Below are positions 4,110 to 60,808 of a stretch of 64,000 nt of DNA, piece by piece (positions within the stretch are counted from its first letter, which is position 1; each line of letters opens with the position of its first letter). A model generated the notes under the pieces. It had not been told where the DNA came from and made no database searches. It saw nothing but the letters and a program-made list of their open reading frames with translations. The stretch comes from an uncultured Bacilli bacterium. GTDB lineage: Bacteria; Bacillota_I; Bacilli_A; RF39; UBA660. Location of the stretch: the NCBI GenBank assembly GCA_934129945.1, contig CAKOXC010000001.1, positions 236,152 to 300,151 on the forward strand, read 5' to 3'. The translations under genes were made by a program, and so were the position numbers.

Positions 4110-4335
4110 TACATGTTACAATACCTTTGAATTTAGCAATGAAGGAAAGAGTAAATAACATAGTTTTGTAGAGAGTTAATGGTTGGTGAAAATTAACAAA
4201 TGAAATTATTGAACATGGTTCTGGAGTTAAAACGTTTAATTCGCGTTAAGAATAAAGTGTATGAATAATTCATAAACTAAGGTGGTACCGCGGAAAATTT
4301 CCGTCCTTAGATTTATGAATTTTTTTATTAGAAAG
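4110..4335 (+). promoter_or_regulatory. T-box leader (tRNA-sensing riboswitch) with terminator/antiterminator preceding metG
   Basis: AGAGA-like box (tagagag), conserved T-box sequence aaGGTGGTACCGCGg at about 4281-4296, then a hairpin (cataaactaagg...ccttagatttatg) followed by a U-run just before the metG RBS. Confidence 0.8.
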
Positions 4336-4345
4336 AAGGAATATT

Positions 4346-5884
4346 ATGGAAAGTAAAGGAAAATATTATATAAGTACAGCTATAGCTTATACATCTGGTA
4401 AACCACATATTGGAAATACATATGAAATTGTATTAGCTGATGCTATTGCAAGATTTAAAAGATTACAAGGATATGATGTTTATTTTCAAACTGGTACTGA
4501 TGAGCATGGTGAAAAAATCGAATTAAAAGCTAAAGAAAAAGGTATAGAACCAAAACAATTTGTTGATGAAGTTTCTACAGAAATTAAAAGAATTTGGGAT
4601 ATAATGAATACTAGTTATGATAAATTTGTAAGAACTACAGATACAAATCATGAAAAAGTAGTCCAACATATTTTTAAAAGAATGTACGAACAAGGAGATA
4701 TTTATAAAAGTGAATATAAAGGATTATATTGTACTCCTTGTGAATCTTTTTGGACAGAATCTCAATTAGTAGATGGAAAATGTCCTGATTGTGGAAGAGA
4801 TGTAGAAACTAAAAGTGAAGAAGCTTATTTCTTTAAATTATCTAAATACCAAAAAAGATTAGAAGATTATATAGAATCTCATCCAGATTTTATCCAACCT
4901 GTAGCTAGAAAAAATGAAATGTTAAATAATTTTATTAAACCTGGTCTACAAGATTTATGCGTCTCAAGAACATCATTTAAATGGGGTATACCAGTAGATT
5001 TTGATTCAAAACATGTAGTATATGTATGGCTTGATGCTTTAACAAATTATATTACTAATATTGGTTATGATGTTGATAATGAATCAGATGAATTTAAAAC
5101 AAAATGGCCAGCTGATTTACATTTAATTGGAAAAGATATAATAAGATTTCATACTATTTATTGGCCATGTTTTCTAATGAGTTTAGGTCTAGAGATGCCT
5201 AAACAAGTTTTTGGTCATCCTTGGTTAATTATGGCTGATGGAAAAATGAGCAAATCTAAAGGTAATGTAGTATATGCTGATGATTTAGCAGAAGAATTTG
5301 GGGTTGATGCTGTAAGATATTATTTCTTACATGAAATTCCATTTGCATCTGATGGTGTATTTACTAAAGATCTATTAATTGAAAGAATTAATGGTGATTT
5401 AGTTAATATTTTAGGAAATTTAATAAATAGAACAGTAAGTATGAACTTTAAATATTTTGATGGTGTAATAGAAAATCCAAATATTGAAGAAGAATTAGAT
5501 AAAGACTTAAAAAATAATGTTCTTTCATTAAAATCTAAAGTAGAAAATAGAATGAATGAATTAAAAGTTGGTGAAGCAATTGAAGAAATCTTTGAAGTTC
5601 TAAGAAAATGTAATAAGTATATTGATGAAACAATGCCATGGAGTTTAGCAAAAGACGAAGATAAAAAGGATAGATTAAAAACAGTTTTATACAATTTATT
5701 AGAAAGTATTCGAATTTGTTCAGTTTTATTACAACCATTTATGCCTGAAACAAGTGAAAAAATATTTAAACAATTGAATACAACTATTTCAGATTATGAT
5801 TCAATAAATGAATTTGGTGCTTTAGAACAAGGAAAAACTTTAAATGAACCTACTCATTTATTTGATAGAATCGATACAAAATAA
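4346..5884 (+). CDS. metG: methionyl-tRNA synthetase, short form
   Basis: Class I aaRS motifs HIGN (KPHIGNTYE) and KMSKS; zinc knuckle CTPCE...CPDCG; T-box leader upstream. Confidence 0.95.
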   Translation: MESKGKYYISTAIAYTSGKPHIGNTYEIVLADAIARFKRLQGYDVYFQTGTDEHGEKIELKAKEKGIEPKQFVDEVSTEIKRIWDIMNTSYDKFVRTTDTNHEKVVQHIFKRMYEQGDIYKSEYKGLYCTPCESFWTESQLVDGKCPDCGRDVETKSEEAYFFKLSKYQKRLEDYIESHPDFIQPVARKNEMLNNFIKPGLQDLCVSRTSFKWGIPVDFDSKHVVYVWLDALTNYITNIGYDVDNESDEFKTKWPADLHLIGKDIIRFHTIYWPCFLMSLGLEMPKQVFGHPWLIMADGKMSKSKGNVVYADDLAEEFGVDAVRYYFLHEIPFASDGVFTKDLLIERINGDLVNILGNLINRTVSMNFKYFDGVIENPNIEEELDKDLKNNVLSLKSKVENRMNELKVGEAIEEIFEVLRKCNKYIDETMPWSLAKDEDKKDRLKTVLYNLLESIRICSVLLQPFMPETSEKIFKQLNTTISDYDSINEFGALEQGKTLNEPTHLFDRIDTK

Positions 5885-17821: not shown

Positions 17822-18454
17822 ATGAAAAAGAGAAAATTAAAAGGATTTGTATTACCAACAGCATATGTTATCGGAGTAACATTTTTATTTTTAGGCATCA
17901 TGTATGTTGGAAGTAAAGGAGTAGATAGTACTTTAGGAAATTATAAATTTGTAACAGGGCTTTTTAATGAAAATTTAACTTCTGTTGTTAGCACTGAAGA
18001 ACCAAAAGTTTCGAAGCCGTTTAATAGTGATAAGGTAGAAATAAGTAAATATTTCTATAATAAAGATGCTGATGATACTAATAAAGAAGCTTCTATAATT
18101 TACTATGAAAATACTTACATGCAAAACACTGGAGTTTTATATTCTTCTGATGAACAATTTGATGTTTTAGCAACATTACCAGGAACAGTAACTAATATTA
18201 AAGATGATAATATACTTGGAAAAGTTGTGTATGTTGAATATAATACAAAATTAACAGTAGTTTATTACTCTTTACAAAGTACTGATTTAAAAATAGGTGA
18301 TCAAATAGATCAAAATACAGTTATTGGTAAAAGTGGTTCAAATAAATTAGAAAACCAAAAGAAATATAATTTATTAATTGAAGTATATAAAGATGGTAAC
18401 TTAATTAATCCTCTAGATTTTTATGAAATGAATGTAAATGAATTAAATAATTAA
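17822..18454 (+). CDS. SpoIIQ-like protein with degenerate LytM (M23) domain
   Basis: N-terminal TM; C-terminal M23-like fold lacking His/Asp zinc ligands; directly downstream of spoIID as in Clostridia. Confidence 0.55.
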   Translation: MKKRKLKGFVLPTAYVIGVTFLFLGIMYVGSKGVDSTLGNYKFVTGLFNENLTSVVSTEEPKVSKPFNSDKVEISKYFYNKDADDTNKEASIIYYENTYMQNTGVLYSSDEQFDVLATLPGTVTNIKDDNILGKVVYVEYNTKLTVVYYSLQSTDLKIGDQIDQNTVIGKSGSNKLENQKKYNLLIEVYKDGNLINPLDFYEMNVNELNN

Positions 18455-18456
18455 TA

Positions 18457-19023
18457 ATGAAAAAACAAGTTGATTGTATATTTTACTTAGTTGATAGTTA
18501 CTTATATTTATATAATTTAAAAAAAGAAGAAATAAAAAAGTATAAGTTCTCAAATTATATATATTATGGAAGAATAGTAAAAGTAAGTCAGTTTTTAAAA
18601 AAATTAAATGAAATAATTAAACAAGAAAAGATTTCAAAACTATTTACTGGTCTAAAAGCAATAGTTATTTATGAACCGTATTTACAATATAATGATAAAA
18701 AAATAATTATTGATGCTTTTGACCAGTGTGGTTTTAAAGATTTAAAATTAATAAGTACAAAACAAATTTTATCTAAAAATAAAACTTTTATAGAAATAAA
18801 TGAAAAATATTTAATTTTATACAATGAAAATAAGTACTTTCTATTTAATGTAAATAAATATTTTAGTATTGAAAATATTATTAATAAAATATTAAAAAGT
18901 ATTTCTAAAAATATATATTTAATTGGAATAAATGAAAGAATTGCAGAGTTAGTAGAGATGAACAAAAAACTATTTTACTTCGAAAATAGCAGTATATTTT
19001 ATTTAAAAAATGCAAAAAAATAA
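18457..19023 (+). CDS. hypothetical protein (188 aa)
   Basis: ORF with AT-rich codon usage consistent with neighbours; no motif recognised. Confidence 0.4.
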   Translation: MKKQVDCIFYLVDSYLYLYNLKKEEIKKYKFSNYIYYGRIVKVSQFLKKLNEIIKQEKISKLFTGLKAIVIYEPYLQYNDKKIIIDAFDQCGFKDLKLISTKQILSKNKTFIEINEKYLILYNENKYFLFNVNKYFSIENIINKILKSISKNIYLIGINERIAELVEMNKKLFYFENSSIFYLKNAKK

Positions 19024-19104
19024 TTGGCAAAAATTGTCAATTTTTTTATGGTGTGATATAATTATAGGTATGGTTAGCAAGCTGCAAATACAGGATGGTG
19101 AGTT

Positions 19105-19816
19105 TATGATTAAATTTGTTGTGGTTGAGGATGATAAATCTCAACAGGAGAAAGTTAAAGGAGTAATTGATAAAGTAAAATTTAAAACTAATGAAGAAAC
19201 GGAAACAGTATTCTTCTCTAAGTACACAAAAACATTACAAAATATTATAAAAGATGATAGTATTCATAAGATATTTATAATGGATATAGAACTTGAAAAT
19301 AATACAAGTGGTATTCAAATAGCAAAATATATTAGAGAAAATGATTGGGATAGTGAAATAATATTTACTACTAGTCATGATAAAATGTTTGAAACAGTTT
19401 ATAGGAATATTTACCAAGTATTTGATTTTATTGAAAAATATCATGATATGTCAAAAAGACTTGAAGAAGATATAAATATTATTTTAAGAAAAAACTTTGA
19501 TAACAAAATGTTAACTTATAGTAATAGATTATTTGATTTAAAAGTATACTACCGTTCTATTTTATATATTTATAGAGAAAAAGATGAAAGAAAATTAGTT
19601 ATTGTAACTGATACAAATATTTTCAAAATTGGTTTGACAATTCCAGAAATGCTAGAGTTGTTAGATGAACGTTTTAAACAATGTCATAGATCTTGTATTG
19701 TTAATGTTGATAGAGTTCAAAAATTCAATTGGAATAATAATTCTTTTTTATTAGATAACAAAGAAGAAATACCAATGCTATCTAAAAAATTTAAGAAAGA
19801 GGTGTTGGGTGAGTGA
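19105..19816 (+). CDS. AgrA-like response regulator (receiver + LytTR DNA-binding domain)
   Basis: Receiver Asp in FIMDIELEN; C-terminal LytTR region RSILYIYREKDERKLVIVTDTNIF...HRSCIVNVDRV; ATG 19105 after RBS and promoter ttgtca..tgtgatataat. Confidence 0.85.
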
Positions 19817-19818
19817 CT

Positions 19819-21099
19819 ATGGAAAGGGTAATAGAGTTTATTGCTATCTTTTTGACGTATTTTTCTTATTTAATAATGTATAAAGTACTAACGATGGAAA
19901 AAATGAAAATGAATTTAAAAAATATGATTATAATGATTGTATTCTCTTACATATCTCTTAAATTTAATGAAATAAATAATGTCTTTATAAACCTAGTTAT
20001 TTCATTAGTTATTATATTTCTTTCAATTAAATTATTTTATAAATCAGATCTTAAAAAAACGATTTTTTATACAATTTTATTAATTTTTATTACATTGATA
20101 AGTGATTCAATAACTTCTTCTTTTATTAAATATAATCATATCAGAAGTTTTGACTCATTTAGGTATAATGTTATTTTAAGATCTTTACTATCTTTTCCTG
20201 TTGTATGTATTTCTTTAATGATATGCTTAATTCCGTTTATTAAAAAAATTTCAAAGGTATTTTATAATAAATATTTTTTGAAATTAAAAGTTAATAAAGA
20301 AAGTTTATTGTGGATTACAATTTTAATAAGTACTATATTAATTATTTTTGGGTTAAATGGATATAATAGAACAAATAAAGCCAAATTTGTAATGTCTTCT
20401 TTATATATTTTTATATTTATTGTTTTATTAATTATAGCATTATATTTACTATATAAAGATTATCAAACTAAAATATTAAATAAAAACATAGTTAATGAAA
20501 ACAAATACATGAAAGATATAGCTAGACAAGAAAAGGAATTTAAACATAATTTAATTAATAATCTTTTAGGTATTAAAACAGTTGCAAGTAAAAAAGTAAA
20601 TCAATTAATTGATGAATTAATATCTGAGTATAAAACTGATTATAAAAATATTTTAAATATAAATGATTTACCAGACGGTGTTTTATCTATTATTTATCGA
20701 AAGGCATATGAAGAAAATATTGATAATTTAAATTTAGCTGTTGACAACAAAATTAAAAAAGATTTAATTGATATGTTATCACCTAAAAATTATAATAAGT
20801 TTTGTACATCAATCGGTATCTTATTTGATAATGCATTAGATGCAGTTAAGTCTTGTAAAGAAAAAATAATTGAAATTAATTTTTTAGAAGATGAAGAATA
20901 TATTTATTATATTCAAAAGAATTCTTTTAATAATGTTATTGATCTTGAACGAACTGGTACTAAAGAATATACGACTAAAAAAAGTGGTCATGGTATAGGT
21001 TTAAATTATGTAAAAAATTTAAAAAATATTGAAACTAAAAATGAAGTAATTAATAATATGTTTATTACAAAATTGAAAGTTAAAAAAATAAAAATGTAG
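19819..21099 (+). CDS. AgrC-like membrane sensor histidine kinase (HPK10 family)
   Basis: About 6-7 TM helices over first 200 aa, H-box EKEFKHNLINNLLGI, GHKL ATPase G-box KKSGHGIGLNYV; start overlaps regulator stop. Confidence 0.85.
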   Translation: MERVIEFIAIFLTYFSYLIMYKVLTMEKMKMNLKNMIIMIVFSYISLKFNEINNVFINLVISLVIIFLSIKLFYKSDLKKTIFYTILLIFITLISDSITSSFIKYNHIRSFDSFRYNVILRSLLSFPVVCISLMICLIPFIKKISKVFYNKYFLKLKVNKESLLWITILISTILIIFGLNGYNRTNKAKFVMSSLYIFIFIVLLIIALYLLYKDYQTKILNKNIVNENKYMKDIARQEKEFKHNLINNLLGIKTVASKKVNQLIDELISEYKTDYKNILNINDLPDGVLSIIYRKAYEENIDNLNLAVDNKIKKDLIDMLSPKNYNKFCTSIGILFDNALDAVKSCKEKIIEINFLEDEEYIYYIQKNSFNNVIDLERTGTKEYTTKKSGHGIGLNYVKNLKNIETKNEVINNMFITKLKVKKIKM

Positions 21100-21118
21100 G
21101 GATTTCCTACATTTTTAT
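21096..21118. terminator. bidirectional hairpin terminator between the convergent kinase gene and agrD
   Basis: TGTAGGgatttCCTACA flanked by T-runs on + and A-runs on the opposite sense. Confidence 0.6.
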
Positions 21119-21234
21119 TTTAACAATTCTCCTGGACAATCAGGTTCATCAAAAACAAGAACTATGCACCCAGTTGAAGCAGAAGCAGCAAGTATTGAAC
21201 CAATTGAAGCCATCAGACCGAAAAATAATTTCAT
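21115..21234 (-). CDS. AgrD-like autoinducing peptide precursor (39 aa; not in ORF track)
   Basis: Minus-strand ORF MKLFFGLMASIGSILAASASTGCIVLVFDEPDCPGELLK with RBS aaatggagg; amphipathic leader, central Cys, acidic tail DEP..P.EL as in staphylococcal AgrD (DEVEVPKEL); immediately downstream of agrB. Confidence 0.75.
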   Translation of the reverse strand: MKLFFGLMASIGSILAASASTGCIVLVFDEPDCPGELLK

Positions 21235-21265
21235 TTGTACCTCCATTTCTAGTCTGTTTTATTAA

Positions 21266-21871
21266 CTAATTCAAACCTTTTTTATAATTCTTATAATTAT
21301 TGAATGGTATACCAAACAATTTATAAGTTAATGGGTTTATAGAAATAATACTCATAATATAAGAAAAGAATATACAATTATTAATTAGAGAATTATTGGA
21401 TAAGAAAGGAATAAACATAAGCACTGTAGAAATAGCTACAGTTAATAATTTATCTAATACTCTTTTCTTCTTATTTATAAGTGGCTTCTTTGGAGTATCA
21501 GCTGGAGCCCATATAATGAAACAGACTAGAGCAATAATACTCATTATTAATATATAAAATTTATTAATAACATAATATTTTATTAATAAAGGAAAAGCTC
21601 CGTAGGTCAAGATTGAAGCAACCCAACAGTGTGAGCTTTTCTTTGCATGAATACCATGTGAAAATAGTCGTAAAAGTAAATAGAAAAGCATTAAAATTAT
21701 TGTTTCTTTAAATGTTTTTAGAAAAAGTGATATAAACAATATACCTAATGTTTTTGTAATTATCGTGTACAGTACTTCTAAACCATATTTGATTTTGATT
21801 TTTTCAGTATCAGTTAACTGATAATACTTAGAAACATAATTTAAATTCTTTTCAGCGAATACTTCTCTCAT
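21266..21871 (-). CDS. AgrB-family membrane peptidase/cyclase
   Basis: 201 aa polytopic; conserved catalytic His/Cys region SHGIHAKKSSHCWVASI typical of AgrB. Confidence 0.85.
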   Translation of the reverse strand: MREVFAEKNLNYVSKYYQLTDTEKIKIKYGLEVLYTIITKTLGILFISLFLKTFKETIILMLFYLLLRLFSHGIHAKKSSHCWVASILTYGAFPLLIKYYVINKFYILIMSIIALVCFIIWAPADTPKKPLINKKKRVLDKLLTVAISTVLMFIPFLSNNSLINNCIFFSYIMSIISINPLTYKLFGIPFNNYKNYKKGLN

Positions 21872-22179
21872 TAATCATACCTCTTTATTAACAAGGTTAT
21901 TATAACTTTTTGAAGTTAAAAAAATTCATAAATTGTCTTAAAAATATTTATAGTTCCTTAATATAGAATTTAGTGATTTAAATCGTTAGTAAAAAAGTCT
22001 TTTAAACATATTTAAGTACTTTTAAGACAAATTTCGACAAAAAATGCAAAACACATGGTATTATCTTTTCATGCTTTGGCAAAGGAAAGCTATAATGTTG
22101 CAAAATTTGTCGAATGCATTTTGTTGAAACATCCTCGAGGCAGTGTTAAATTTAAGTTGAAGGAAGAAGAGGTGAGATT

Positions 22180-22395
22180 GTGAGAAGTAGAGTAAAATGG
22201 TTCAATAACGAAAAAGGTTATGGATTCTTAGAATATAATGATAAAGAAGATATCTTTGTACATTATAGTGCTATTATAAAAGATGGTTATAAATCCTTAA
22301 CTGAAGGAACTATCGTTGAATTCAGATTAGTTGAAACTTCAAAAGGACTCCAAGCTACTGATGTAGTTGAAGTGGAATTAGCTACAATTAAGTAG
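22180..22395 (+). CDS. cold-shock protein (CspA family)
   Basis: VKWFNNEKGYGFL (RNP1) and VFVHYSAI (RNP2); GTG start; long 5' UTR typical of csp mRNAs. Confidence 0.9.
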   Translation: MRSRVKWFNNEKGYGFLEYNDKEDIFVHYSAIIKDGYKSLTEGTIVEFRLVETSKGLQATDVVEVELATIK

Positions 22396-22442
22396 TTTTT
22401 TTTCTGGAATAATGTTATAATTATTCTAAGGAAGGTGATTAA

Positions 22443-22976
22443 ATGAAAATTAGTATACGTGGTGATAAACTAGTCGTTACTAAGGCCATTAAAGAAACTA
22501 TTGAAAGTAAATTAGAAAGGTTAGAAAAATATTTTGAAGAAAATGCTGATATTACAGCTCATGTTGTAGTAAAAGTTAAAAATTTAGATCAAACTATTGA
22601 AGTAACAATTCCAACTAATAGATTTACTTTAAGAGCAGAAGAAACTCATGAAGATTTGTATACTGCTATTGATAAAGTTATTGATAAGTTAGAAAGACAA
22701 ATTAGAAAAAATAAGACAAAATTAAATAATAAATATAAAAATGTAGATAAAATGGATATGATATTAGATTTTGATGTTGAAAAAGATGAAGAAGAAAACA
22801 TTAAAATTGTTAAGAGAAAAAATATTGAAATGAAACCAATGGATGAAGAAGAAGCAGTTTTACAGTCTAGTTTATTGGGACATGATTTCTTCGTATTCAA
22901 GAATATTGATGAGGAATGTGTATCTGTTTTATATCTTAGAAAAGATGGAAGCTACGGAATTATCAACGTTAAATAA
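22443..22976 (+). CDS. hpf: ribosome hibernation promoting factor (long HPF/YvyD)
   Basis: MKISIRGDKLVVTKAIKE...; C-terminal dimerisation extension; upstream of secA as in Bacillus. Confidence 0.9.
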   Translation: MKISIRGDKLVVTKAIKETIESKLERLEKYFEENADITAHVVVKVKNLDQTIEVTIPTNRFTLRAEETHEDLYTAIDKVIDKLERQIRKNKTKLNNKYKNVDKMDMILDFDVEKDEEENIKIVKRKNIEMKPMDEEEAVLQSSLLGHDFFVFKNIDEECVSVLYLRKDGSYGIINVK

Positions 22977-27947: not shown

Positions 27948-29126
27948 ATGAATAATTGTAATGATTATGAACGAATAAAAAAAAGAATTGAACAAGAGGG
28001 AAAAAAATATCAATATTGCTATGTGCAAGGACCAACAGGACCTCAAGGAGTTCAGGGTATTCAAGGTGTAACTGGCCCAACTGGAGCTATTGGCCCTAAA
28101 GGTGATAAAGGAGATAGAGGAACACCAGGACCAGTTAGTATCGATGTTGGTGATACAGAAACAGTGGAATCTTTTGAAGAAGCTAAAGTAGAAAATGTTG
28201 GGACAAAAGAAGATGTTATTTTGAATTTTAAAATTCCAAGAGGTAAACAAGGTATAGATGGAAATACAGGCCCACAAGGAATTCCAGGACCAAAGGGAGA
28301 AAAAGGTGAGCAAGGACCACAAGGAATAAAAGGTGAAAAAGGTGACCCGGGACCATCTACTATTCAAATTGGAAATATAGAAACAATAGGTGCTACTGAA
28401 GAAGCTGAAGTTATAAATGTTGGAACACCTGTGGATGTAGTTTTAGATTTTAAAATTCCAAAAGGTGATAAAGGAGATAAAGGAGATAAAGGAGATATTG
28501 GCCCAAGAGGCTTACCAGGAGAAATAGGAAGAACAGAACATATTGCTGTAGATGAGACTACAACTTTAGAGCCTGGAGAACCAGCAGCTGTTATGGATAC
28601 ATTTGAAAATTGGGTACATCATCTAGCCTTTTTAATTCCAAAAGGTGAAAAAGGAGAAATTGGAGAAAGAGGACCCCAAGGTCCAGCAGGTCCTCCAGGA
28701 ACAGAATTTGTGTCATCTTATGGAATTAGATATTCAATGACTGATACACAACTTAATTTACCACAAGCAACTGATACGATTATTCCATTACCTGAAAAAG
28801 GAATATCATTTTTAACAGAATATCCAGATGATAATTCTATTAAAATAAAAGAAAAAGGAATATATCTTGTATCGTATTTAATATGTGGAGCGACGAACGA
28901 AGAATGTTCTATAACGTTGTCTGTTAGAGCAAATGACATATTACAACCAGCTACAAATGTGACTAGTGAGTTTAGTGCTCAAATAATTAATAGTATAAGT
29001 GGAACTACTATTGTATCATTACAACCAAATGATCTAATAACATTAAATGTTAAACCATCTAAAACTGTTGATATAAAGTTTAATGGAAATACTAATGCAA
29101 TGTTAAATGTTACTAAAATACATTAA
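27948..29126 (+). CDS. collagen-like triple-helix repeat protein with C-terminal BclA/C1q-like globular domain
   Basis: Three G-X-Y blocks (GPQGVQGIQGVTGPTGAIGPKGDKGDRGTPGP etc.) separated by a repeated non-collagen module ending ..NFKIPRG / ..DFKIPKG / ..FLIPKG; about 130-aa C-terminal beta-rich domain. Confidence 0.75.
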   Translation: MNNCNDYERIKKRIEQEGKKYQYCYVQGPTGPQGVQGIQGVTGPTGAIGPKGDKGDRGTPGPVSIDVGDTETVESFEEAKVENVGTKEDVILNFKIPRGKQGIDGNTGPQGIPGPKGEKGEQGPQGIKGEKGDPGPSTIQIGNIETIGATEEAEVINVGTPVDVVLDFKIPKGDKGDKGDKGDIGPRGLPGEIGRTEHIAVDETTTLEPGEPAAVMDTFENWVHHLAFLIPKGEKGEIGERGPQGPAGPPGTEFVSSYGIRYSMTDTQLNLPQATDTIIPLPEKGISFLTEYPDDNSIKIKEKGIYLVSYLICGATNEECSITLSVRANDILQPATNVTSEFSAQIINSISGTTIVSLQPNDLITLNVKPSKTVDIKFNGNTNAMLNVTKIH

Positions 29127-35252: not shown

Positions 35253-35840
35253 TTATTGCATTAATATTTTTTTAATAGCATCATATAAGTATGGTTTATA
35301 TTCTTTAATAGATAATGGTTCATGTTTCATAATACAAGAAAAACAAGTTGAACTTGTAAGTTCTATTATCATAAATAAAGTTACTTCAGGATTTTCAAGC
35401 TTTATATTGTTTTCTTCCATTCCTTTTAAAAATATTTCTTTTACTCCAATACTATTTTCTCCAATTAATTTATTTATTTTTTCACTATAAAGTCCAAATG
35501 ACAAATTTTTGGATATAAATTTTAATAAAAGCTTATTTTTAGTTAATTCATCAATTACGTAATCAATAACAAATATTATTTGATCATAAAATGAATCAAA
35601 TTTTTTCTTATTTAATTTTTTTATTGCATCATGAAATAATTTATAAGACTTTCTTGCAATTAATTGCTCTTGTAGATCGTATTTGTCTTTAAAGTATAAA
35701 TAAAATGTTCCTTTACCAACACCAGCTTTATCAGCAATTTCCTGAATTGAAGTGTCTTTAATACCTTTTTCAGTAAATAATTTAAATGCTGTTTCAAATA
35801 AACTATTTTCCTTTTCTTTTTTATTTTCTATAGCTTTCAT
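35253..35840 (-). CDS. TetR/AcrR-family transcriptional regulator
   Basis: HTH region SIQEIADKAGVGKGTFYLYFKDKYDL; divergent from MMPL transporter. Confidence 0.85.
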   Translation of the reverse strand: MKAIENKKEKENSLFETAFKLFTEKGIKDTSIQEIADKAGVGKGTFYLYFKDKYDLQEQLIARKSYKLFHDAIKKLNKKKFDSFYDQIIFVIDYVIDELTKNKLLLKFISKNLSFGLYSEKINKLIGENSIGVKEIFLKGMEENNIKLENPEVTLFMIIELTSSTCFSCIMKHEPLSIKEYKPYLYDAIKKILMQ

Positions 35841-35982: not shown

Positions 35983-38900
35983 ATGAATAAATTAGGAGAA
36001 AAAATTTGTAAACATAAAAACCTCATAATTATTTTGACTGTAATTTTATTAATTCCAGCACTAATAGGAATGTATAAAACAAAAATTAATTATGATATTT
36101 TGGTTTACTTACCTGAAGATATTGAAACAATAAAAGGTGAGAACATTTTAACAGATGATTTTAACATGGGGGCATTTGCAATCACTATTGTTGACAATAT
36201 GGCAGACAAAGACGTATTAACTTTGGAAAGTAAAATAAGAGATATAGATGGAGTAAATAAAGTCGTAAGTATCGACGATATTACGGGAACAACTATTCCA
36301 CTAGAATTTATACCTTCTGATATTACTGAAAAAGTAGCAAAAGGTAATTCTAAATTAGTACTTGTAACATTTAATGAGTCAACGAGTGATGATGTAACAT
36401 TAGATGCCGTTCAAGACTTACGTAATCTTGTAAAAAATACTGCTAAAGTTGGTGGTATGAGTGCTATGGTACTTGATACAAAAGAATTATTTAATAGTGA
36501 AATGGCATTATATGTTGCTATTGCTGTAGTTTTATGTATCATGGTTTTAATGATTTCACTAGATTCTTATCTAGTACCTATATTACTTATTGCTAATATT
36601 GGAGTTGCTATTTTATTCAATATGGGAAGTAACATTTTCCTTGGAGATATTTGTTATATTACTAAAGCAATTAGTGCTGTATTACAACTTGGGGTAACAA
36701 CAGACTTTTCTATATTCTTGTATCATAAATACGAAAAAGCTAAAAAAGAAAATAAAGACATAAATAAAGCAATGTCAATTGCAATACATGAAACTTTAGT
36801 ATCAGTGTTTGGTAGTTCAATAACAACTATTGCAGGTTTCTTAGCATTGTGTACAATGAACTTAAAATTGGGTACTGATATAGGTATTGTTATGGCAAAA
36901 GGTGTAGTATTTGGATTATTATGTGTAATTACATTATTCCCAGCATTACTTTTAATTTTTGATAAACAAATAGAAAAAACTAAACATAAAGAAATACTTC
37001 CAAAATTTACAAGAGTTAAGAATTTTGTAATGAAAAATTATAAAATTATATTCGTAGTATTCTTATTATTACTATTCCCAGCATATAAAGCTCAATCAAA
37101 AACTAGTGTATATTATAAACTTGATGAATCTATTCCAGATGATTATGGTTATACAATAGCTACAAAGGCTTTAAAAGAAGATTATGATATTGTTTCACAA
37201 GAATTAATATTAGTATCTAAAGATATGTCAAATTCAGATATGAATATGATGGTTAATGAGATAAAGGATATTGATGGCATTAATTTAGTTCTAAGTCCAT
37301 CTTCATTAAGTGAATATGGATTAAGTGAAGAAATGTTATCAGATGATATTAAAGATATTTATCAAACAGATAAGTATAAAATGGTATTAGTAAATTCTAC
37401 ATATGATATAGCTACTGAAGAATTAAATGATCAAATTACAAAAGTAAATAATATAGTAAAAAAATATGATGAAAATTCAATAGTAGCTGGTGAAGGTCCT
37501 TTAATGAAAGATCTTGTAGAGATTACTGATCAGGACTTTAAAAATGTTAATACAACGAGTATAGCTGTAATATTTGTATTGATGTTAATAGTATTGAAAT
37601 CAATTTCTTTGCCAGTATTATTAGTTACAGCAATTGAGTTTGCAATATTTATAAACATGGGTGTTCCATATTTTACAGGAACAGAAATTCCATTTATTGC
37701 TTCAGTTGTAATTGGTACTATCCAATTAGGGGCTACTATTGACTACGCAATATTAATGACAACTAAATACTTAGAAGAAAGACAAAAAGGAACGAGTAAA
37801 GAAGATTCTATAAAAATAGCATTAGATAACTCAGTTACTTCAATTGTTGTTAGTGGGTTATGTTTCTTTGCAGCAACTATTGGAGTTGGAGTAGTTTCTA
37901 AAATTGATATGATTGGATCACTTTGTACACTTATTTCAAGAGGAGCTATTATAAGTATGATAGTAGTAATTACAGTAGTTCCATCACTTCTAATGATTTT
38001 TGATAAATTAATTTGTAAAACAACACTTGGATTTAATAAAAAAGAAAGGAAAATAAATATGAAAAAGAATATAAAAAAAATGGATTCATGGGCTTTGATA
38101 GCTATGTTAATGACACCAGCATTACCAGTTAGTGCGTTAACTAAAGATGAAACTGTATATTCAAAATTAGAAACAAATGGTGATACAAAATACACCATTG
38201 TTACTGAACATTTAATAAATGATAAAGAAGAAAACAATTTAATAGATTCTACAGATTTAAAAGATATAATTAATACCAATGGTAGTGAAAAATATACTAT
38301 TGATGGTGATAATATTGTATGGAGTTCAAATAAAAAAGATATTTACTATAAAGGAAGCACAGAAAAAGAATTACCTGTTACATTAAAAGCAACTTATAAA
38401 TTTGATGGAAAAGAATCAGATGTAAAAGATATGCTTGGTAAAAAGGGTAATGTTGAAATAACTTTAACTTATAAAAATTCAGATAAACATGTTGTTAATG
38501 GTTCAACAATGTATACTCCATTTGTAGTAACAACTGCTACAACTTTTGATTCAACTACTACATCTAATTTAAAAGTAACTAATGGTAAAGTAGTTTCAAA
38601 TGGTAAAACTTATGCAGTAGCAGCAATAGCAACTCCAGGATTATATGAAAGTTTAAATATTAGTGAATTAAAAGATATGGACACTATTAAAATTACATTT
38701 GATACAACTGATTTTGAATTAAGTAGCATATATTCAATGGTTAATGCCAAATTAATTGATAGTAGTGATTTAAAAGTATTTAATGAATTAGATTCATTAT
38801 ATTCTAAAGTAGATACTTTAAAATCTAGTAGTGCTAAACTTGTAAATGGTTCAAAAGAATTAACTAATGGTGTTAAACAAATTAGAAGTGCTGTAATTGC

Positions 38901-46794: not shown

Positions 46795-46868
46795 AGGGGT
46801 ATAATATAGTGGTAGTATGATGGTCTCCAAAACCATTCGCGAGGGTTCAAATCCTTCTACCCCTGCCA
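46795..46868 (+). tRNA. trnW: tRNA-Trp (anticodon CCA)
   Basis: Cloverleaf: acceptor AGGGGTA/TACCCCT, anticodon stem ATGGT/ACCAT with loop CTCCAAA, T-arm AGGGT TCAAATC, 3' GCCA. Confidence 0.9.
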
Positions 46869-51678: not shown

Positions 51679-54177
51679 ATGAATAAATTAAGTAAAATAT
51701 TATTATTTGTTATAACAATTGTGGGAGCATTTTTAGGGATAAATAAAGTAGATGCTCGTACTTATGAAGGACAAATAAAAGCAGGACCTTATGTTGGAGG
51801 TCCATTTTATGTTATGCATACACGAGGAGAAAGCAAAATGTGGTTTAAAGGACAATTTATTGTTAGAACTAGCGATGGACATTTTGTTTATTGTGTGCAA
51901 CCGATGACGAAAATTAATTCAGATGCAACTTATGAGGTAACCACAGAGGATATACAAGCCGTAGCTAATATACCTTTAGATACATGGAATAAGATTTCAA
52001 AAATTGCCTATTATGGATATGGGTATAAAGATGCAACACATGATCATACTGATGATACATATTATTTAGCAGCACAAATGCTAATATGGAAATTAGCAGA
52101 TCCAAATGTTGATAGTTTTTTTACTGATACACTAAAAGGAAATAGAAATGATAGTATTTTAGCAGGACAAATGAATTCTATAATGGATTTAGTTAATAAT
52201 CATAATACAACGCCAAATTTTACTAATTTTCCAGATACAATGGTAGTTGGACAAAATATTAATATAAATGATTCAAATGGTGTATTAAATAATTATCAAA
52301 TATCTAATGTAGATAATGGTAGTGCAACGATTAATGGTAATAACCTATCTTTAACAGCAACTAATGTTGGACAATTAACAATTACACTTACAAAATCAGG
52401 TAATAGATATGGAAGCCCAATAGAACTTTATTATGCTACTAGTTCACAAAATGTAATTAAAAGAGGAGACATTGATCCTATTAGAATTGTAAAAAAAGTA
52501 ACTGTATTTGGTGGAGATGTAAAAATTCACAAAACAGACTCTGAAACTAAAAATAATAAAGCTCAAGGTGAAGCTACATTAAAAGGAGCAATATATGGTA
52601 TTTATAAAGAAGATGGTACAAAAGTAGGAACTATTACAACAAATGATGATGGTACTACTAAAAGTGATTATCTACCATCATTGGGAAGATATTATTTATT
52701 AGAAGAAAAAGCTTCAAATGGGTATAAATTAGATCCAAATAAATATTACTTTGATGTAACTCTTGATCAATTACATCCTGAAGTTCAAGTTTTTGAAGAT
52801 GTAATAAAAAGAACATTTCAATTTATAAAAGTATATGCAGATAATAAGACAGGGATTATGACTCCTGAAATTGGTGTAAAATTTGGAATATACAACAATA
52901 AAAATGAATTAGTTAAAACATTAATAACTGATGCACAAGGCAGTTTTGATATAACATTACCTTATGGTAAATATGTTGTAAAACAATTGACTTCAACTAA
53001 GGGTTATGAAAAAGCAAAAGATTTTACCATTGAAGTAAAAGAAGATGGTGGAATTGTAAAAAAAGTAATTGCAAATGCAGAAATAACTGCAAGACTTAAA
53101 GTTATAAAAATAGATAAAGATACTGGTGATGTTATAAAAAGATCAGGTATTAAATTCAAAATTATTAATGCAAAAACTAAAAAATATGTTAAACAAACAA
53201 TAACATACCCTAGTGCAAAAACAATTGATGTTTTTGAAACTGATGAAAATGGGATATTAATTACTCCATATCCACTGGAAAGTGGAACTTATTTCTTAGA
53301 AGAAGTAGATCAAAAAATAGATGGATATTTATGGAATAAAAATTCAGTTGAATTTACAATCGATGAAAATTCTAAATTAGTAAATGATGACGAATTTGGA
53401 ATTTTATATGAAGTTAAATTTGAAAACAAAGCAGTTAAAGGTAGCCTAGAACTAACTAAAACTGGAGAAAAAGTAGAATTAACTAATAAAGGTTATGTTT
53501 ATACTGAAATTAATCTTAAGGATGTAAAAATAGGATTATATGCTAATGAGGATATTTATGATTCTTTAGGTAATTTAAAATATAAGAAAGATACTTTAAT
53601 AAAAATCTTAATTACAGATGAAAATGGATATGCTAAAGTTGAAAATTTGTTTTTAGGTAAGTATTATTTACAAGAGATAGAAACAATAAATAATCATATA
53701 TTGGACAAGACTAAATATACTTTTGAATTAAAGTATAAAGATCAGTATACAAAAATTATAAACTATACAACTTTATTAAAAAATCATCTTCCAAAAGGGA
53801 CTCTAGAATTTACTAAATCAGATTTTTCAAATGATAAAACATTACCAAATACTTTGATTGAAATTTATACTGAAAATGATGAATTAGTATATGTTGGTAG
53901 AACTGATTCAAATGGTAAAATTATTATTAATGAACTACCACTTGGTAAATATTACATCATAGAAAAACAAGCACCTGAAGGTTATAAAATAAATCCTGAT
54001 AAGATGTGGTTTGAAATATCAGAAGATGGTAAAATTGTTAAAGCAATAATGAAAGATGAAGTTATAGAAGTTCCTAACACAGGAGTTAATGATTCTCATA
54101 TAATTGATATTATTGGTTTAGTATTTATTACTGGTGGTGTTGGATTTATTATTTATGATAAAAAAAGAAAAAAATAA
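51679..54177 (+). CDS. sortase-anchored surface adhesin/pilin-like protein with Cna-B/SpaA-type isopeptide domains
   Basis: Signal peptide; repeated prealbumin-like modules (G.Y.L.E...P.GY); C-terminal sorting signal VPNTG + hydrophobic stretch + KKRKK. Confidence 0.8.
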   Translation: MNKLSKILLFVITIVGAFLGINKVDARTYEGQIKAGPYVGGPFYVMHTRGESKMWFKGQFIVRTSDGHFVYCVQPMTKINSDATYEVTTEDIQAVANIPLDTWNKISKIAYYGYGYKDATHDHTDDTYYLAAQMLIWKLADPNVDSFFTDTLKGNRNDSILAGQMNSIMDLVNNHNTTPNFTNFPDTMVVGQNININDSNGVLNNYQISNVDNGSATINGNNLSLTATNVGQLTITLTKSGNRYGSPIELYYATSSQNVIKRGDIDPIRIVKKVTVFGGDVKIHKTDSETKNNKAQGEATLKGAIYGIYKEDGTKVGTITTNDDGTTKSDYLPSLGRYYLLEEKASNGYKLDPNKYYFDVTLDQLHPEVQVFEDVIKRTFQFIKVYADNKTGIMTPEIGVKFGIYNNKNELVKTLITDAQGSFDITLPYGKYVVKQLTSTKGYEKAKDFTIEVKEDGGIVKKVIANAEITARLKVIKIDKDTGDVIKRSGIKFKIINAKTKKYVKQTITYPSAKTIDVFETDENGILITPYPLESGTYFLEEVDQKIDGYLWNKNSVEFTIDENSKLVNDDEFGILYEVKFENKAVKGSLELTKTGEKVELTNKGYVYTEINLKDVKIGLYANEDIYDSLGNLKYKKDTLIKILITDENGYAKVENLFLGKYYLQEIETINNHILDKTKYTFELKYKDQYTKIINYTTLLKNHLPKGTLEFTKSDFSNDKTLPNTLIEIYTENDELVYVGRTDSNGKIIINELPLGKYYIIEKQAPEGYKINPDKMWFEISEDGKIVKAIMKDEVIEVPNTGVNDSHIIDIIGLVFITGGVGFIIYDKKRKK

Positions 54178-58455: not shown

Positions 58456-60808
58456 TAAGAAAAGTAAACTTCCCAAAAATATATCAGATTTTATTCCATT
58501 TCAAGATGTTTGGAATAACCTAGTTTATTTGGATAATAATAGAATTGTTGGTGGAATCAAAATCGGATCTATCAATTTACATTTATTATTTGATGAAGAA
58601 CAAAAAATCAAAGTTGCAGAACTTAAAAAGGTTTTAAATTCAATTGACTACCCTGTTAAAATTTTTAGTGTAGATAAACCTATTAATCTTGATGATAATT
58701 TAAACTTACTAGGTTCTAAAATTAAATCTGAAACTAATAAAAGCAAAATAAAATTACTAGAGGAAGATTATAATTTTGTCCAAGATTTAAATAATAAAAA
58801 ATGGGTTGTAAATCGAGAATTTTATTTAATTATGGAAGAAGATGCAACAAATGAGCAATTAATTAACCAGAAGCTAAATGATTTAATTCAGGAATTTATT
58901 TCTATTGGATTATATAGTGAAAGAGTTTCTAGTGAAGAGTGGCGAGATTTATTATATATTATTTTAAATCCTGTTACATCGCTCGACATTTTCAAAAAAG
59001 ATGCTACAGGTATAACTCGCTCATTTAAAGAGAAAATCGCCCCAAACGGCTTAAAAATCAATGAAAAGGATATAATTCTAGGTGATGCTTATGTAAGTGT
59101 TGTTACACTTCGAACATACCCATCTATTGTTGGTGTTGCATGGTTAGGTGCAGTTGCTAACGTTAACCATACTCGTATGGTTATGACAATCTCTCCTATG
59201 GATGCATTTGATATAAGCAATACTTTGAAAAAAAGTATGTCAGAAGTAAAATCAAAATTAATGAACACAAATAATTATAATGATGAGGTTGTATTAAATA
59301 ACCAGTTAGACGATTATGTTCAATTAGTGAATAGAATTGATCGTGAACATGAAAAGTTTTCATTGTTGACGGTCAATTTTTTATGCTATGGTGATTCGAA
59401 GGAAAATATGGAAAGAGCAAAAAAAGAATTAAAAACTACTCTTTCTGCTTATGGTATGGGTGGCACTGATTTAATGTTTGAGCAAGAACGATCATTAAAA
59501 ATGTGTTTACCTACATTGTATAGAGATTTAGAAAAAGAATTCGGACTTCCAATTCCTATGATGACTACTGCCTCATCTTTCCCTTTTATCTTTCAAACGT
59601 TGCAAGATGATGGCGATGCTATGATGATTGGAACTGATTCTCTTGGCAGTCTTTTATTCTTTGACTTATGGAAAAGAACTAGTAAAAGAAATAATTCAAA
59701 TGCAGTAATTATTGGTAAATCAGGTTCTGGTAAGTCTACTTTAATAAAAAAACTTATTCGAGGTAATTGGTGTCGTGGATCTAAAGTAATTGTTATAGAT
59801 CCTGAACGAGAGTATAAGGATTTATGTGAAAATATTAATGGTACATGGATTGATTGTGGAACAGGTTCACATGGAATAATTAATCCACTTGAAGTTAGAA
59901 AAGGTGCTGATGACTCTGATGAAGATAAAAAGAATTTTAATAATGATTTATCAAGACATTTTCAAACGTTTAGAACTTTTATAAAGTATTATCTACAGGA
60001 TCTAACTGCTTATGAGTTAACCAAAATTGAAGAAATACTTATAGAAGTATATAAAGATAAAAATATTGATTTTGATACTGACTTATCAAAATTATCAAGT
60101 GATGACTACCCTATAATGCAAGATTTATATAATAAGGTAGTTGAGACATTAAAACAAGCGAAAGCAAATAAAGAGGCACGAAATGTTATTGAGTCGTTAG
60201 AAAAAATTTCTTCAATGTTAAAAAAATCTACAATTGGAGCAGATGCAAGGATCTTTAATGGTCATTCAAGTATTAATGTGGATAATTCATCCGACTTTAT
60301 TGTTTTGGATATTCATAGCCTTGTTGATTCCGATGAAACAATATTAAGAACTCAGTTCTTCAATATATTATCTTGGTGTTGGAACGAAATAAGTCGTGAT
60401 AGAAATGAACAAGTAATTCTTGTATGCGATGAAGCACATTTACTTATTGATCCTAACAATAAAGATGGTATAGATTTTTTAAAAAGGACAGCAAAAAGAA
60501 TAAGAAAATATAACGGTTCATTATGGATTATTAGTCAAAACTTAATAGATTTTACTTCACAAGGCATTGAAAGATTTGGACAAGTTATTATAGATAATAG
60601 TTCTTATATTTTGGTCATGGCACAAGGACAAAAAGAAATTGAAGCAGTTCAAAAAATGATGAATTTATCAGAATCTGAAATACAATTCCTTACAACTGCT
60701 TCTCGTGGTCAGGGATTATTTGTTATAAGTCAAGATACTCGTTTACCAATTCAAATTCATTTACGAGAAGAAGAAAAGGAGTTGTTTGGTAATGCTGGTG
60801 GTCGTTAA
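58451..60808 (+). CDS. VirB4/TraE-family conjugation ATPase; probable non-ATG (ATT/CTG) start
   Basis: Walker A IIGKSGSGKST, Walker B LVCDEAHLL; frame is open from 58448 and encodes conserved VirB4 N-terminus KLPKNISDFIPFQDVW upstream of the first canonical start (TTG 58529); strong RBS AGGGAGGG at 58432-58440. Confidence 0.8.
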   Translation: MNKKSKLPKNISDFIPFQDVWNNLVYLDNNRIVGGIKIGSINLHLLFDEEQKIKVAELKKVLNSIDYPVKIFSVDKPINLDDNLNLLGSKIKSETNKSKIKLLEEDYNFVQDLNNKKWVVNREFYLIMEEDATNEQLINQKLNDLIQEFISIGLYSERVSSEEWRDLLYIILNPVTSLDIFKKDATGITRSFKEKIAPNGLKINEKDIILGDAYVSVVTLRTYPSIVGVAWLGAVANVNHTRMVMTISPMDAFDISNTLKKSMSEVKSKLMNTNNYNDEVVLNNQLDDYVQLVNRIDREHEKFSLLTVNFLCYGDSKENMERAKKELKTTLSAYGMGGTDLMFEQERSLKMCLPTLYRDLEKEFGLPIPMMTTASSFPFIFQTLQDDGDAMMIGTDSLGSLLFFDLWKRTSKRNNSNAVIIGKSGSGKSTLIKKLIRGNWCRGSKVIVIDPEREYKDLCENINGTWIDCGTGSHGIINPLEVRKGADDSDEDKKNFNNDLSRHFQTFRTFIKYYLQDLTAYELTKIEEILIEVYKDKNIDFDTDLSKLSSDDYPIMQDLYNKVVETLKQAKANKEARNVIESLEKISSMLKKSTIGADARIFNGHSSINVDNSSDFIVLDIHSLVDSDETILRTQFFNILSWCWNEISRDRNEQVILVCDEAHLLIDPNNKDGIDFLKRTAKRIRKYNGSLWIISQNLIDFTSQGIERFGQVIIDNSSYILVMAQGQKEIEAVQKMMNLSESEIQFLTTASRGQGLFVISQDTRLPIQIHLREEEKELFGNAGGR

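Follow-up and report, generated by a model that had tools for sequence, protein, structure and literature searches.

Layout of the locus

The window analysed here is a stretch of 64,000 nucleotides from the genome of an uncultured gut bacterium, a spore former of the class Bacilli (assembly GCA_934129945.1, contig CAKOXC010000001.1), whose closest genome is labelled Erysipelotrichaceae. It contains a locus of the agr quorum-sensing type made of four genes: a response regulator and a histidine kinase, read from the plus strand, converge on agrD and agrB, read from the minus strand (Table 1). This layout, taken from the list of open reading frames (ORFs) and from the raw sequence, is the one proposed in a preliminary description of the same DNA, with all four genes on the strands it gave them. 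Of the two boundaries drawn there, 19105 and 21871, the second holds and the first moves by one base, the ATG of the regulator lying at 19106.

We consider it very probable that this is a complete and functional agr-type locus with a genuine AgrD propeptide: the reading is based on profile matches, on the conservation of catalytic and signalling residues, on conserved gene order, and on the way in which a short cassette of the peptide and the sensor of the kinase vary together. The fuller statement, which adds the size of the peptide ring and the regulatory circuit as they are qualified below, is likely, to a somewhat lesser degree.

Table 1. Features of the agr locus and its surroundings, in window positions (aa, amino acids; nt, nucleotides).
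Feature	Position	Strand	Description
Candidate agrA-agrC promoter	19034..19062	+	TTGTCA, 17 nt, TATAAT with upstream TG; 11/12 matches
agrA-like response regulator	19106..19816	+	236 aa; receiver domain and LytTR DNA-binding domain
agrC-like kinase	19813-21099	+	428 aa; start overlaps the regulator stop codon
agrC N-terminal membrane sensor	19813..20457	+	residues 1-215; hypervariable, signal-matching part; from hydropathy
agrC cytoplasmic histidine-kinase half	20458..21099	+	H-box H245, N-box D339/N340, G-box G394/G396
Hairpin with flanking A and T runs	21085..21121		between the converging ends of agrC and agrD
agrD	21115..21234	-	39-aa propeptide MKLFFGLMASIGSILAASASTGCIVLVFDEPDCPGELLK; between agrC and agrB
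AgrD leader		-	MKLFFGLMASIGSILAASASTG
AgrD cassette	21151-21168	-	C23-I-V-L-V-F28
AgrD follower		-	DEPDCPGELLK
agrB	21266..21871	-	201 aa; membrane peptidase; Pfam AgrB
Candidate agrBD promoter	21899..21943	-	TATAAT (21904-21899), poor -35; box (plus-strand TGTCTTAAAA, 21934-21943) 29 nt upstream
Direct-repeat pair	21999..22029	-	TGTCTTAAAA (22029-22020) and TGTTTAAAAG (22008-21999); candidate site of the LytTR regulator
Candidate csp promoter	22034..22064	+	TCGACA (22034-22039), 19 nt, TGgTATTAT (-10 at 22059-22064)
csp	22180-22395	+	Pfam CSD; divergent from agrBD
hpf	22443-22976	+	Pfam Ribosomal_S30AE, Ribosom_S30AE_C; divergent from agrBD

The regulator has both a receiver domain (Pfam Response_reg, 2e-8) and a LytTR domain (2.7e-14), and its residues D9, D60 and K111 are invariant across 14 lineages. 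It is called as a protein of 236 amino acids on most of the public contigs listed, and a sequence search of solved structures gives ComE (4cbv) as its nearest solved relative. The kinase is of the HPK10 type: a polytopic sensor with about six membrane-spanning segments within residues 1-210 is followed by the histidine of the H-box and by a GHKL ATPase domain (Pfam HATPase_c_5, 1.2e-9). Across the same 14 lineages, H245, D339/N340 and G394/G396 are invariant, and not one residue is invariant in the first 215.

The product of agrB is a peptidase of the AgrB family, matching the Pfam model over positions 2-184 of 185 with E = 1e-33. Its H75 and C82, seven residues apart, are invariant in the 14 lineages, and their spacing is that of the catalytic dyad His77/Cys84 of Staphylococcus aureus AgrB (PMC10482373). 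The search of solved structures returned no relative of AgrB.

The AgrD propeptide

The small ORF on the complement of 21115-21234 encodes exactly the 39 amino acids that the preliminary description had quoted. A GGAGG ribosome-binding site (21244-21240, minus strand) stands 5 nucleotides before the ATG at 21234; an earlier ATG at 21246, which would yield a form of 43 amino acids, overlaps this GGAGG, and for these two reasons the shorter form is preferred. That the ORF is missing from the ORF track is correct, but it is the effect of a length cut-off: the exact sequence has already been called, as an unnamed protein, on 26 public contigs (NCBI, ENA, Logan).

The design of the peptide is that of an AgrD: the gene is next to agrB, and the product has a hydrophobic, amphipathic leader, an internal Cys, and a charged follower with Pro and E...L. 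Its E30, P34 and L37 align with E34, P38 and L41 of S. aureus AgrD. Of the two profile comparisons, the NCBIfam model TIGR04223 (“AgrD family cyclic lactone autoinducer peptide”) is passed with 21.4 bits for a curated cut-off of 19, but the staphylococcal Pfam model AgrD is not, at 16.6 bits for a cut-off of 22.7. The identification as AgrD made in the preliminary description is thus borne out by TIGR04223, by the equivalents that follow agrB in each of the relatives described below, and by the co-variation of the cassette with the sensor. A second Cys, C33, sits in the follower, the part that AgrB is expected to discard. It had been described as unusual, and turns out to be typical of the lineage; relatives have F, Y, M or T in its place, which indicates that it is replaceable and not required as a Cys.

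Relatives and gene order

One GTDB genome per bacterial species was searched with AgrB, yielding 13 relatives with AgrB identities of 37-97%. Their records, whose names point to sources that include rumen, rabbit and Hadza samples, are gut assemblies labelled as uncultured Bacilli, Bacillota, Erysipelotrichaceae or “Clostridium sp. CAG”, with one exception: locus L011 (CAVBMP010000113.1) is labelled Bacteroides helcogenes yet carries a Bacilli-type spoIID-M23-agr-csp block, and is probably mis-binned. In all 13 relatives, an ORF of 37-43 amino acids of the AgrD design, with a hydrophobic leader, directly follows agrB, and a ribosome-binding site of type AGG or GGAGG is found in the 18 nucleotides displayed 5' of each of the 13 starts.

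The genes around the locus form a conserved block, in the order spoIID, M23 peptidase, a protein of 188 amino acids of no assigned family, agrA, agrC, then the converging agrD and agrB, and, divergent from agrB, csp, hpf and secA. The block is kept, up to the ends of the contigs, in all 13 genome-derived loci; csp is divergent from agrB in 12 of them, the contig of the remaining one, L009, stopping about 200 nucleotides upstream of agrB. From this conservation of gene order it follows that the locus is ancestral to the clade and has a fixed place in the chromosome. It also makes the proximity of spoIID and spoIIQ a matter of inherited gene order, and not evidence of a regulatory link.

Two observations concern members of this block. 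The 188-residue ORF of the window, at 18457-19023 (+) between the M23 (spoIIQ-like) gene and agrA, has zero matches in Pfam and NCBIfam; it is kept in place in every same-species locus, and among the 13 genome-derived loci a similar protein appears only in L003 (46% identity). In L009, the AgrD-like ORF at 866-976 (MLEMLAGLLSGAASLSVGQARTLWLVWDEPTCPEELL) has Thr in place of the ring Cys six residues before DEP, and its sole Cys is in the follower: its signal could be a Thr-lactone, unless the allele is dead.

Pherotypes

We searched a large protein collection with the 43-residue form of the peptide as query; 16 unnamed clusters matched, their cluster mates were added, and 17 further loci carrying matched peptides were retrieved. 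These 17 metagenome loci have the same gene order as the window. Throughout, next to no variation is seen in the leader MKLFFGLMASIGSILAASASTG or in the follower DEPxCPxELL(K), and the hypervariable part is the stretch of five residues that comes after the Cys; 14 cassettes are found on one leader: CIVLVF, CIILVF, CLILVF, CISWFY, CIVYLW, CMNWFF, CIIWVF, CLNWFF, CFVILY, CIAWVW, CIVWVW, CYFLIW, CMNWLF and CIYWIW. At least eight different Cys+5 cassettes occur within one species, in genomes that are 96-99.7% identical in the flanks.

Against this near-identical background, the sensor stands apart. Compared with the window, the DNA of same-species loci is 96-99.7% identical in the flanking genes, agrA and agrB, and only 51-58% identical in the sensor segment 19813-20457; the cytoplasmic half of agrC, at 86-95% among same-species loci, lies between the two. 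The proteins behave in the same way, with identities of 95-99% for AgrA, 95-100% for AgrB, and 97-100% for complete flanking proteins.

Sensor identity follows the cassette. Sensors that go with an identical cassette share 89-100% of their amino acids (14 pairs), and the window's own cassette was found in four independent samples, with sensors 97-100% identical to that of the window. For cassettes that are close to each other, the identity is 95% (CIVLVF and CIILVF), 61% (CIVWVW and CIAWVW) or 54% (CIVLVF and CLILVF), and the other cassette pairs fall to 25-38%, the median being 31% over the 96 pairs with at least two differences. The rank correlation between the number of ring differences and sensor identity is weak (rho = -0.21): the relation is a step, from identical to different, and not a linear one.

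These comparisons essentially establish a pherotype polymorphism like that of the agr groups of S. aureus, with many matched cassette and sensor alleles in one species. The set appears unusually large for an agr system, and its sensors, at 25-38% identity, look as diverged as between species, around a single invariant AgrB. The co-variation of specificity, which is comparative and not biochemical in nature, supports the product of the small ORF as the ligand of the kinase, and is the best available evidence short of biochemistry. With AgrB itself outside the variable region, it must, on this comparison, rely for recognition on the constant leader and follower, and accept rings of any sequence.

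Two alleles call for separate mention. The cassette CISWFY is shared by L002:4919-5035 and L017:4001-4117, from lineages that differ at the species level: the identity of AgrB to that of the window is 87% for the first of these two values and 99% for the second, which points to an allele shared between species or to a cassette that was transferred. The contig of L002 ends before agrC, and so has no sensor to set beside that of L017. In L014:4001-4117 (protein P0013), the follower reads DEPNCTEELL, with Thr replacing the otherwise invariant proline. L001 combines the same ring with the normal proline, and the sensors of the two loci are 89% identical; the L014 allele may be a processing-defective variant.

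Candidate promoters, repeats and a probable terminator

We now turn to the non-coding DNA of the locus. The best-scoring sigma-70-like site of the interval 18400-22500 lies just upstream of agrA, and the motif scan described below finds no high-scoring paired site near it. The agrA-agrC operon is thus probably expressed constitutively, from this near-consensus promoter. Between the converging operons, the hairpin of Table 1 folds on both strands, with energies of -17.4 and -17.2 kcal/mol (z = -6.1 and -6.3), and is probably a terminator for both.

The spacer between agrB and csp is 308 nucleotides long. Motif sampling over 11 lineages, limited to the 185 nucleotides nearest agrB, yields a pair of direct repeats, TGT[CT][TA]TAAAA, 11 nucleotides, TGT[TC]TAAAA[GT], with a period of 21 base pairs in 7 of the 11 lineages. 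The pair starts 151-163 nucleotides before the start codon of agrB in nine of them, and the score of the motif is 118.6, compared with 97.4 +/- 3.9 for shuffled sequences. Two other procedures gave less: unrestricted sampling settled on the 5' leader of csp with its ribosome-binding site, in reverse complement, a motif that was set aside, and a generic repeat finder found just A/T-rich two-copy repeats of doubtful meaning.

Two direct repeats of about 10 base pairs, with a period of 21 base pairs, ending just upstream of a weak -35, are the canonical layout of LytTR sites, as for AgrA, ComE and PlnC. In the window, read toward csp, the pair ends 4 nucleotides before TCGACA and 29 nucleotides before TGgTATTAT. 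A -10-like hexamer lies exactly 28-29 nucleotides from the box in 9 of the 11 lineages, 7 of them with the extended TG; the background frequency is 0.067, and P(>=7 of 11) is 1.3e-4. A third box, which took no part in training the motif and lies on the strand opposite to the pair, is present in 9 of 11 lineages: this is a single box and not a pair, found 29-30 nucleotides from a -10-like hexamer in 5 of the 9, on the side of agrBD, where the -10 and the 5' leader are conserved in the alignment.

We infer that the regulator binds these boxes, the pair being placed for the promoter of csp-hpf and possibly for that of agrBD. Several points weigh against this reading. The DNA has about 25% G+C, a composition in which promoter-like sites and A/T-rich repeats are commonly matched; the sigma-70 scan gives 38 promoter-like sites for 39.5 expected, and is uninformative alone. 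That the window's pair is the top-scoring paired site in the whole window is partly circular, the site having helped to train the motif. The geometry of the box on the agrB side is found in only those 5 lineages of 9, and the best-conserved pair, about 100 nucleotides from the proximal -10 of agrBD, fits the csp promoter better.

The repeats could instead be the site of another regulator, or an UP element of the csp promoter, with agr working through sites that we did not recognise. This is a serious alternative, although not the one we would choose. The pair is A/T-rich, as UP elements are, it stands directly upstream of the -35 and -10 of csp with fixed spacing, and csp, next to hpf and secA, has a housekeeping context. 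However, its layout is the canonical one of LytTR sites, its informative positions are the G/C-containing TGT[CT] and not mere A/T tracts, a further copy precedes the agrBD -10 by 29 nucleotides and is oriented alike with respect to transcription, and the gene of the sole LytTR protein seen in the locus is a neighbour. Binding by the regulator is the reading that we retain.

The preliminary description had proposed to map LytTR repeats upstream of agrB and upstream of the regulator gene: the first region has a candidate pair and a single candidate box, and the second has none. Its suggestion that the locus may gate sporulation or surface-protein programmes fares less well. A motif scan of the 64 kilobases, including the surroundings of spoIID, of the M23 gene and of the surface-protein genes, finds no comparable paired site outside the agrB-csp region, which leaves such control unsupported from the window; the proximity of spoIID and spoIIQ is, as said, one of conserved gene order. 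Three weaker pairs with a -10-like hexamer 27-30 nucleotides away all face the minus strand, which is nearly gene-free in the window.

On the other side of the spacer, the Rfam search of the agrB-csp intergenic region found no RNA family, hence no RNAIII-like element, and no terminator-like site was found between csp, hpf and secA. The clade of the window has an insertion of about 30 nucleotides at 22080-22110, with a second TATAAT (22091-22096). The insertion, absent in the group of L002, L021 and L023, separates the box-associated csp promoter from the conserved 5' leader motif GCAAAATTTGTCG, and csp may have two promoters in the window's lineage.

The predicted signal

The preliminary description predicted a cyclic peptide around C-I-V-L-V, with F as an optional sixth residue. 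The alignments argue for the longer option: the predicted thiolactone ring has six residues, C-I-V-L-V-F. In 13 lineages, the ring Cys precedes D-E-[P/E/D]-x-x-P-x-x-L-L by exactly six residues, the fourteenth being L009, with its Thr. The follower D29-E30-P31-D32-C33-P34-G35-E36-L37 aligns residue for residue with D33-E34-V-E-V-P38-K-E-L41 of S. aureus, a segment that starts directly after the ring; the likening of DEPDCPGEL to the staphylococcal DEVEVPKEL, made at the outset, was apt. The S. aureus residue numbers are from PMC10482373, where E34 and L41 are functionally important. This alignment would place the C-terminus of the ring at F28.

The spacing leads to the same prediction. The segment C23-IVLVF-D29-E30-P31 fits the rarer subclass of six-residue rings, in which the Cys and five residues precede a follower [Y/D]-E-P-x-x-P. 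The same spacing is found in the clostridial set of PMC10301443 (Figure S1), and in Clostridium acetobutylicum GKCVLVTLYEPKMPEELL, for which the AgrD signalling peptide employed in experiments is a synthetic, tail-less six-residue ring, R6T0 (PMC10301443). In addition, the sixth residue of the cassette varies between pherotypes (for example CIVWVW and CIIWVF), as would be expected for a part of the signal.

A ring of the usual five residues, C-I-V-L-V, with Phe28 as the first residue of the removed follower, is compatible with the sequence, and this weighs against the prediction. The great majority of the characterised signals of the agr type have macrocycles of five residues (PMC10482373, PMC10301443), and position six is in every case occupied by a bulky hydrophobic amino acid (F, W, Y or L), a regularity that a conserved cleavage site could explain just as well. 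However, the follower aligned with that of S. aureus, the C-x5-[YD]EP spacing of the clostridial class in which R6T0 is active, and the variation of the sixth residue between pherotypes all favour six, and we hold the shorter ring to be unlikely.

The N-terminal end is constrained by the residues S-T-G before the Cys. As they are invariant between pherotypes, the signal would be either tail-less or provided with a constant tail. The preceding Ala-Ser-Ala fits a signal-peptidase cut (the Ala-x-Ala rule) and suggests Ser-Thr-Gly as such a tail. Tail-less thiolactones may rearrange to all-amide cyclic peptides (PMC11953309).

A proposed circuit and its assessment

The proposed mechanism is the following. 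The agrB and agrD genes would form one operon, whose 39-residue product enters the membrane through its hydrophobic leader. AgrB, with H75 and C82, would cut off DEPDCPGELLK and join Cys23 to Phe28, by then the C-terminus, as a thiolactone; the leader would be cut next, to give a ring without tail or with a short constant tail. From the second, converging operon, agrA and agrC would be expressed under their own strong promoter. Binding of the cognate ring by the sensor of AgrC would lead to phosphorylation of H245, and then of D60 of the regulator, whose LytTR domain would bind the TGT[CT]TTAAAA boxes of the agrB-csp intergenic region, activating agrBD, as an autoinduction, and the divergent csp-hpf.

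The last step implies that the direct divergent output of the system is the operon csp-hpf(-secA), and not a regulatory RNA. We put this forward tentatively, and rather doubt it; if true, cell density would have direct control of both a cold-shock-type RNA chaperone and the hibernation of ribosomes, with quorum sensing driving csp and the ribosome hibernation factor directly.

What may be held against the reading of the locus as a functional agr system is of two sorts. The staphylococcal and equivalog models fall below their cut-offs: 40 bits for a cut-off of 400 with the NCBIfam AgrA equivalog, a weak full-length match of 24 bits for 500 with the staphylococcal NCBIfam AgrC equivalog, 124 bits (5.9e-36) for 282 with the AgrB-like PRK01100, and the staphylococcal Pfam AgrD score already given. 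The four proteins are therefore family relatives, and not orthologues, of those of S. aureus. Also, all of the evidence is comparison of sequences. That the small ORF is a chance frame, or that the locus is decaying and has lost its signalling, is nevertheless most improbable: with just 39 codons in AT-rich DNA, and one relative (L014) that lost the follower proline, such a reading must face a curated AgrD model that is passed, an ORF of the same design with its ribosome-binding site in 13 of 13 diverged relatives, a leader and follower that are conserved while cassette and receptor change together, catalytic and phosphotransfer residues that are all invariant, and an identical allele with an identical sensor in several independent samples.

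If the functional reading is right, the locus provides a concrete signal that can be synthesised, the predicted cyclo-thiolactone CIVLVF, for an uncultured lineage of spore-forming gut commensals (rumen, rabbit, human). The pherotypes, in which peptide and sensor match while the genomes are near-identical and AgrB is constant, form a data set supplied by nature for the evolution of receptor specificity, and also for the way in which a single AgrB accepts so many different rings. They suggest, too, that strains interfere with one another in gut communities.

Other features of the window

Among the 47 ORFs of at least 150 amino acids, the only ones on the minus strand are agrB, a TetR-family gene (35253-35840), and an ORF antisense within an MMPL gene (37743-38279). 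Given this strong bias, agrBD is among the very few units of the window that are transcribed against the prevailing direction. A T-box leader at 4130-4311 (+), with 117 bits, is directly upstream of the gene for methionyl-tRNA synthetase (4346-5884, +). A collagen-repeat protein with a BclA C-terminal domain, of exosporium type (27948-29126, +), fits a spore-forming host. The segment 46795-61473 starts with a tRNA gene (46795-46865), followed by a surface protein with SpaA and thioester domains (51679-54177) and by a TraG/VirB4-like ATPase (58529-60808); a conjugative element may have integrated here, at the tRNA gene.

Comparison with known systems

Systems of the agr type are textbook biology, and the locus is a new member of a well-known kind, no discovery in kind; it is lifted above routine by the series of pherotypes and by the possible csp-hpf output. 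A literature search for agr in Erysipelotrichaceae returned nothing relevant.

With agrBDCA of S. aureus, the locus shares its four components, namely an AgrB peptidase with its His and Cys, an AgrD, a polytopic HPK10-type kinase and a LytTR regulator. The two AgrD have in common the amphipathic leader, the internal Cys and the acidic, proline-containing follower, and groups I-IV are likewise a polymorphism within a species in which peptide and kinase sensor vary together (PMC10482373). In a manner reminiscent of the promoters P2 and P3, two candidate divergent promoters beside agrB share a type of box in the same orientation relative to transcription, with csp-hpf here in the place of RNAIII: the divergent transcript encodes these two proteins, and Rfam finds no RNAIII-like gene. 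The differences are several. S. aureus has one operon, agrBDCA, and here agrA-agrC and agrB-agrD converge; the ring has five residues there, and six are predicted here; agrB is part of the variable region there, whereas here AgrB is 95-100% identical across pherotypes, and the residues N-terminal to the Cys are constant. Four groups are known there, compared with at least eight cassettes in one species here, and 14 on one leader. Finally, the proteins score well below the staphylococcal equivalog cut-offs.

The agr system of C. acetobutylicum (CA_C0078-0081; R6T0, with ring CVLVTL) also has separate operons agrBD and agrCA (PMC10301443) and a spore-forming host. Its AgrD has the same pattern, C-x5 followed by [Y/D]-E-P-x-x-P-x-E-L-L, as can be seen by comparing GKCVLVTLYEPKMPEELL with TGCIVLVFDEPDCPGELLK here, and in both cases a hydrophobic ring of six residues is predicted. 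However, the clostridial six-ring systems adjoin a gene for a LanM-like effector (CA_C0082) (PMC10301443), and such a gene is absent here from the conserved block and from the five ORFs of the window longer than 750 amino acids, which encode Mfd, SecA, the MMPL protein, the SpaA/thioester adhesin and the TraG-like ATPase. The leader is longer and charged there, and short, hydrophobic and of 22 residues here; the operons of the window converge, its host belongs to another class, Bacilli, and it comes with a diversity of pherotypes that PMC10301443 does not describe.

Families of autoinducing peptides have recently been mined at scale from human microbiome genomes (Nat Commun 2025, PMC11953309). 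In the portions of that work on which we drew, they resemble the present case as pairs of an agr-type precursor and an AgrB, in uncultured gut bacteria, with a mature peptide deduced from conservation; what the analysis of this locus addresses beyond those portions is the co-variation of the sensor and the layout of the promoters.

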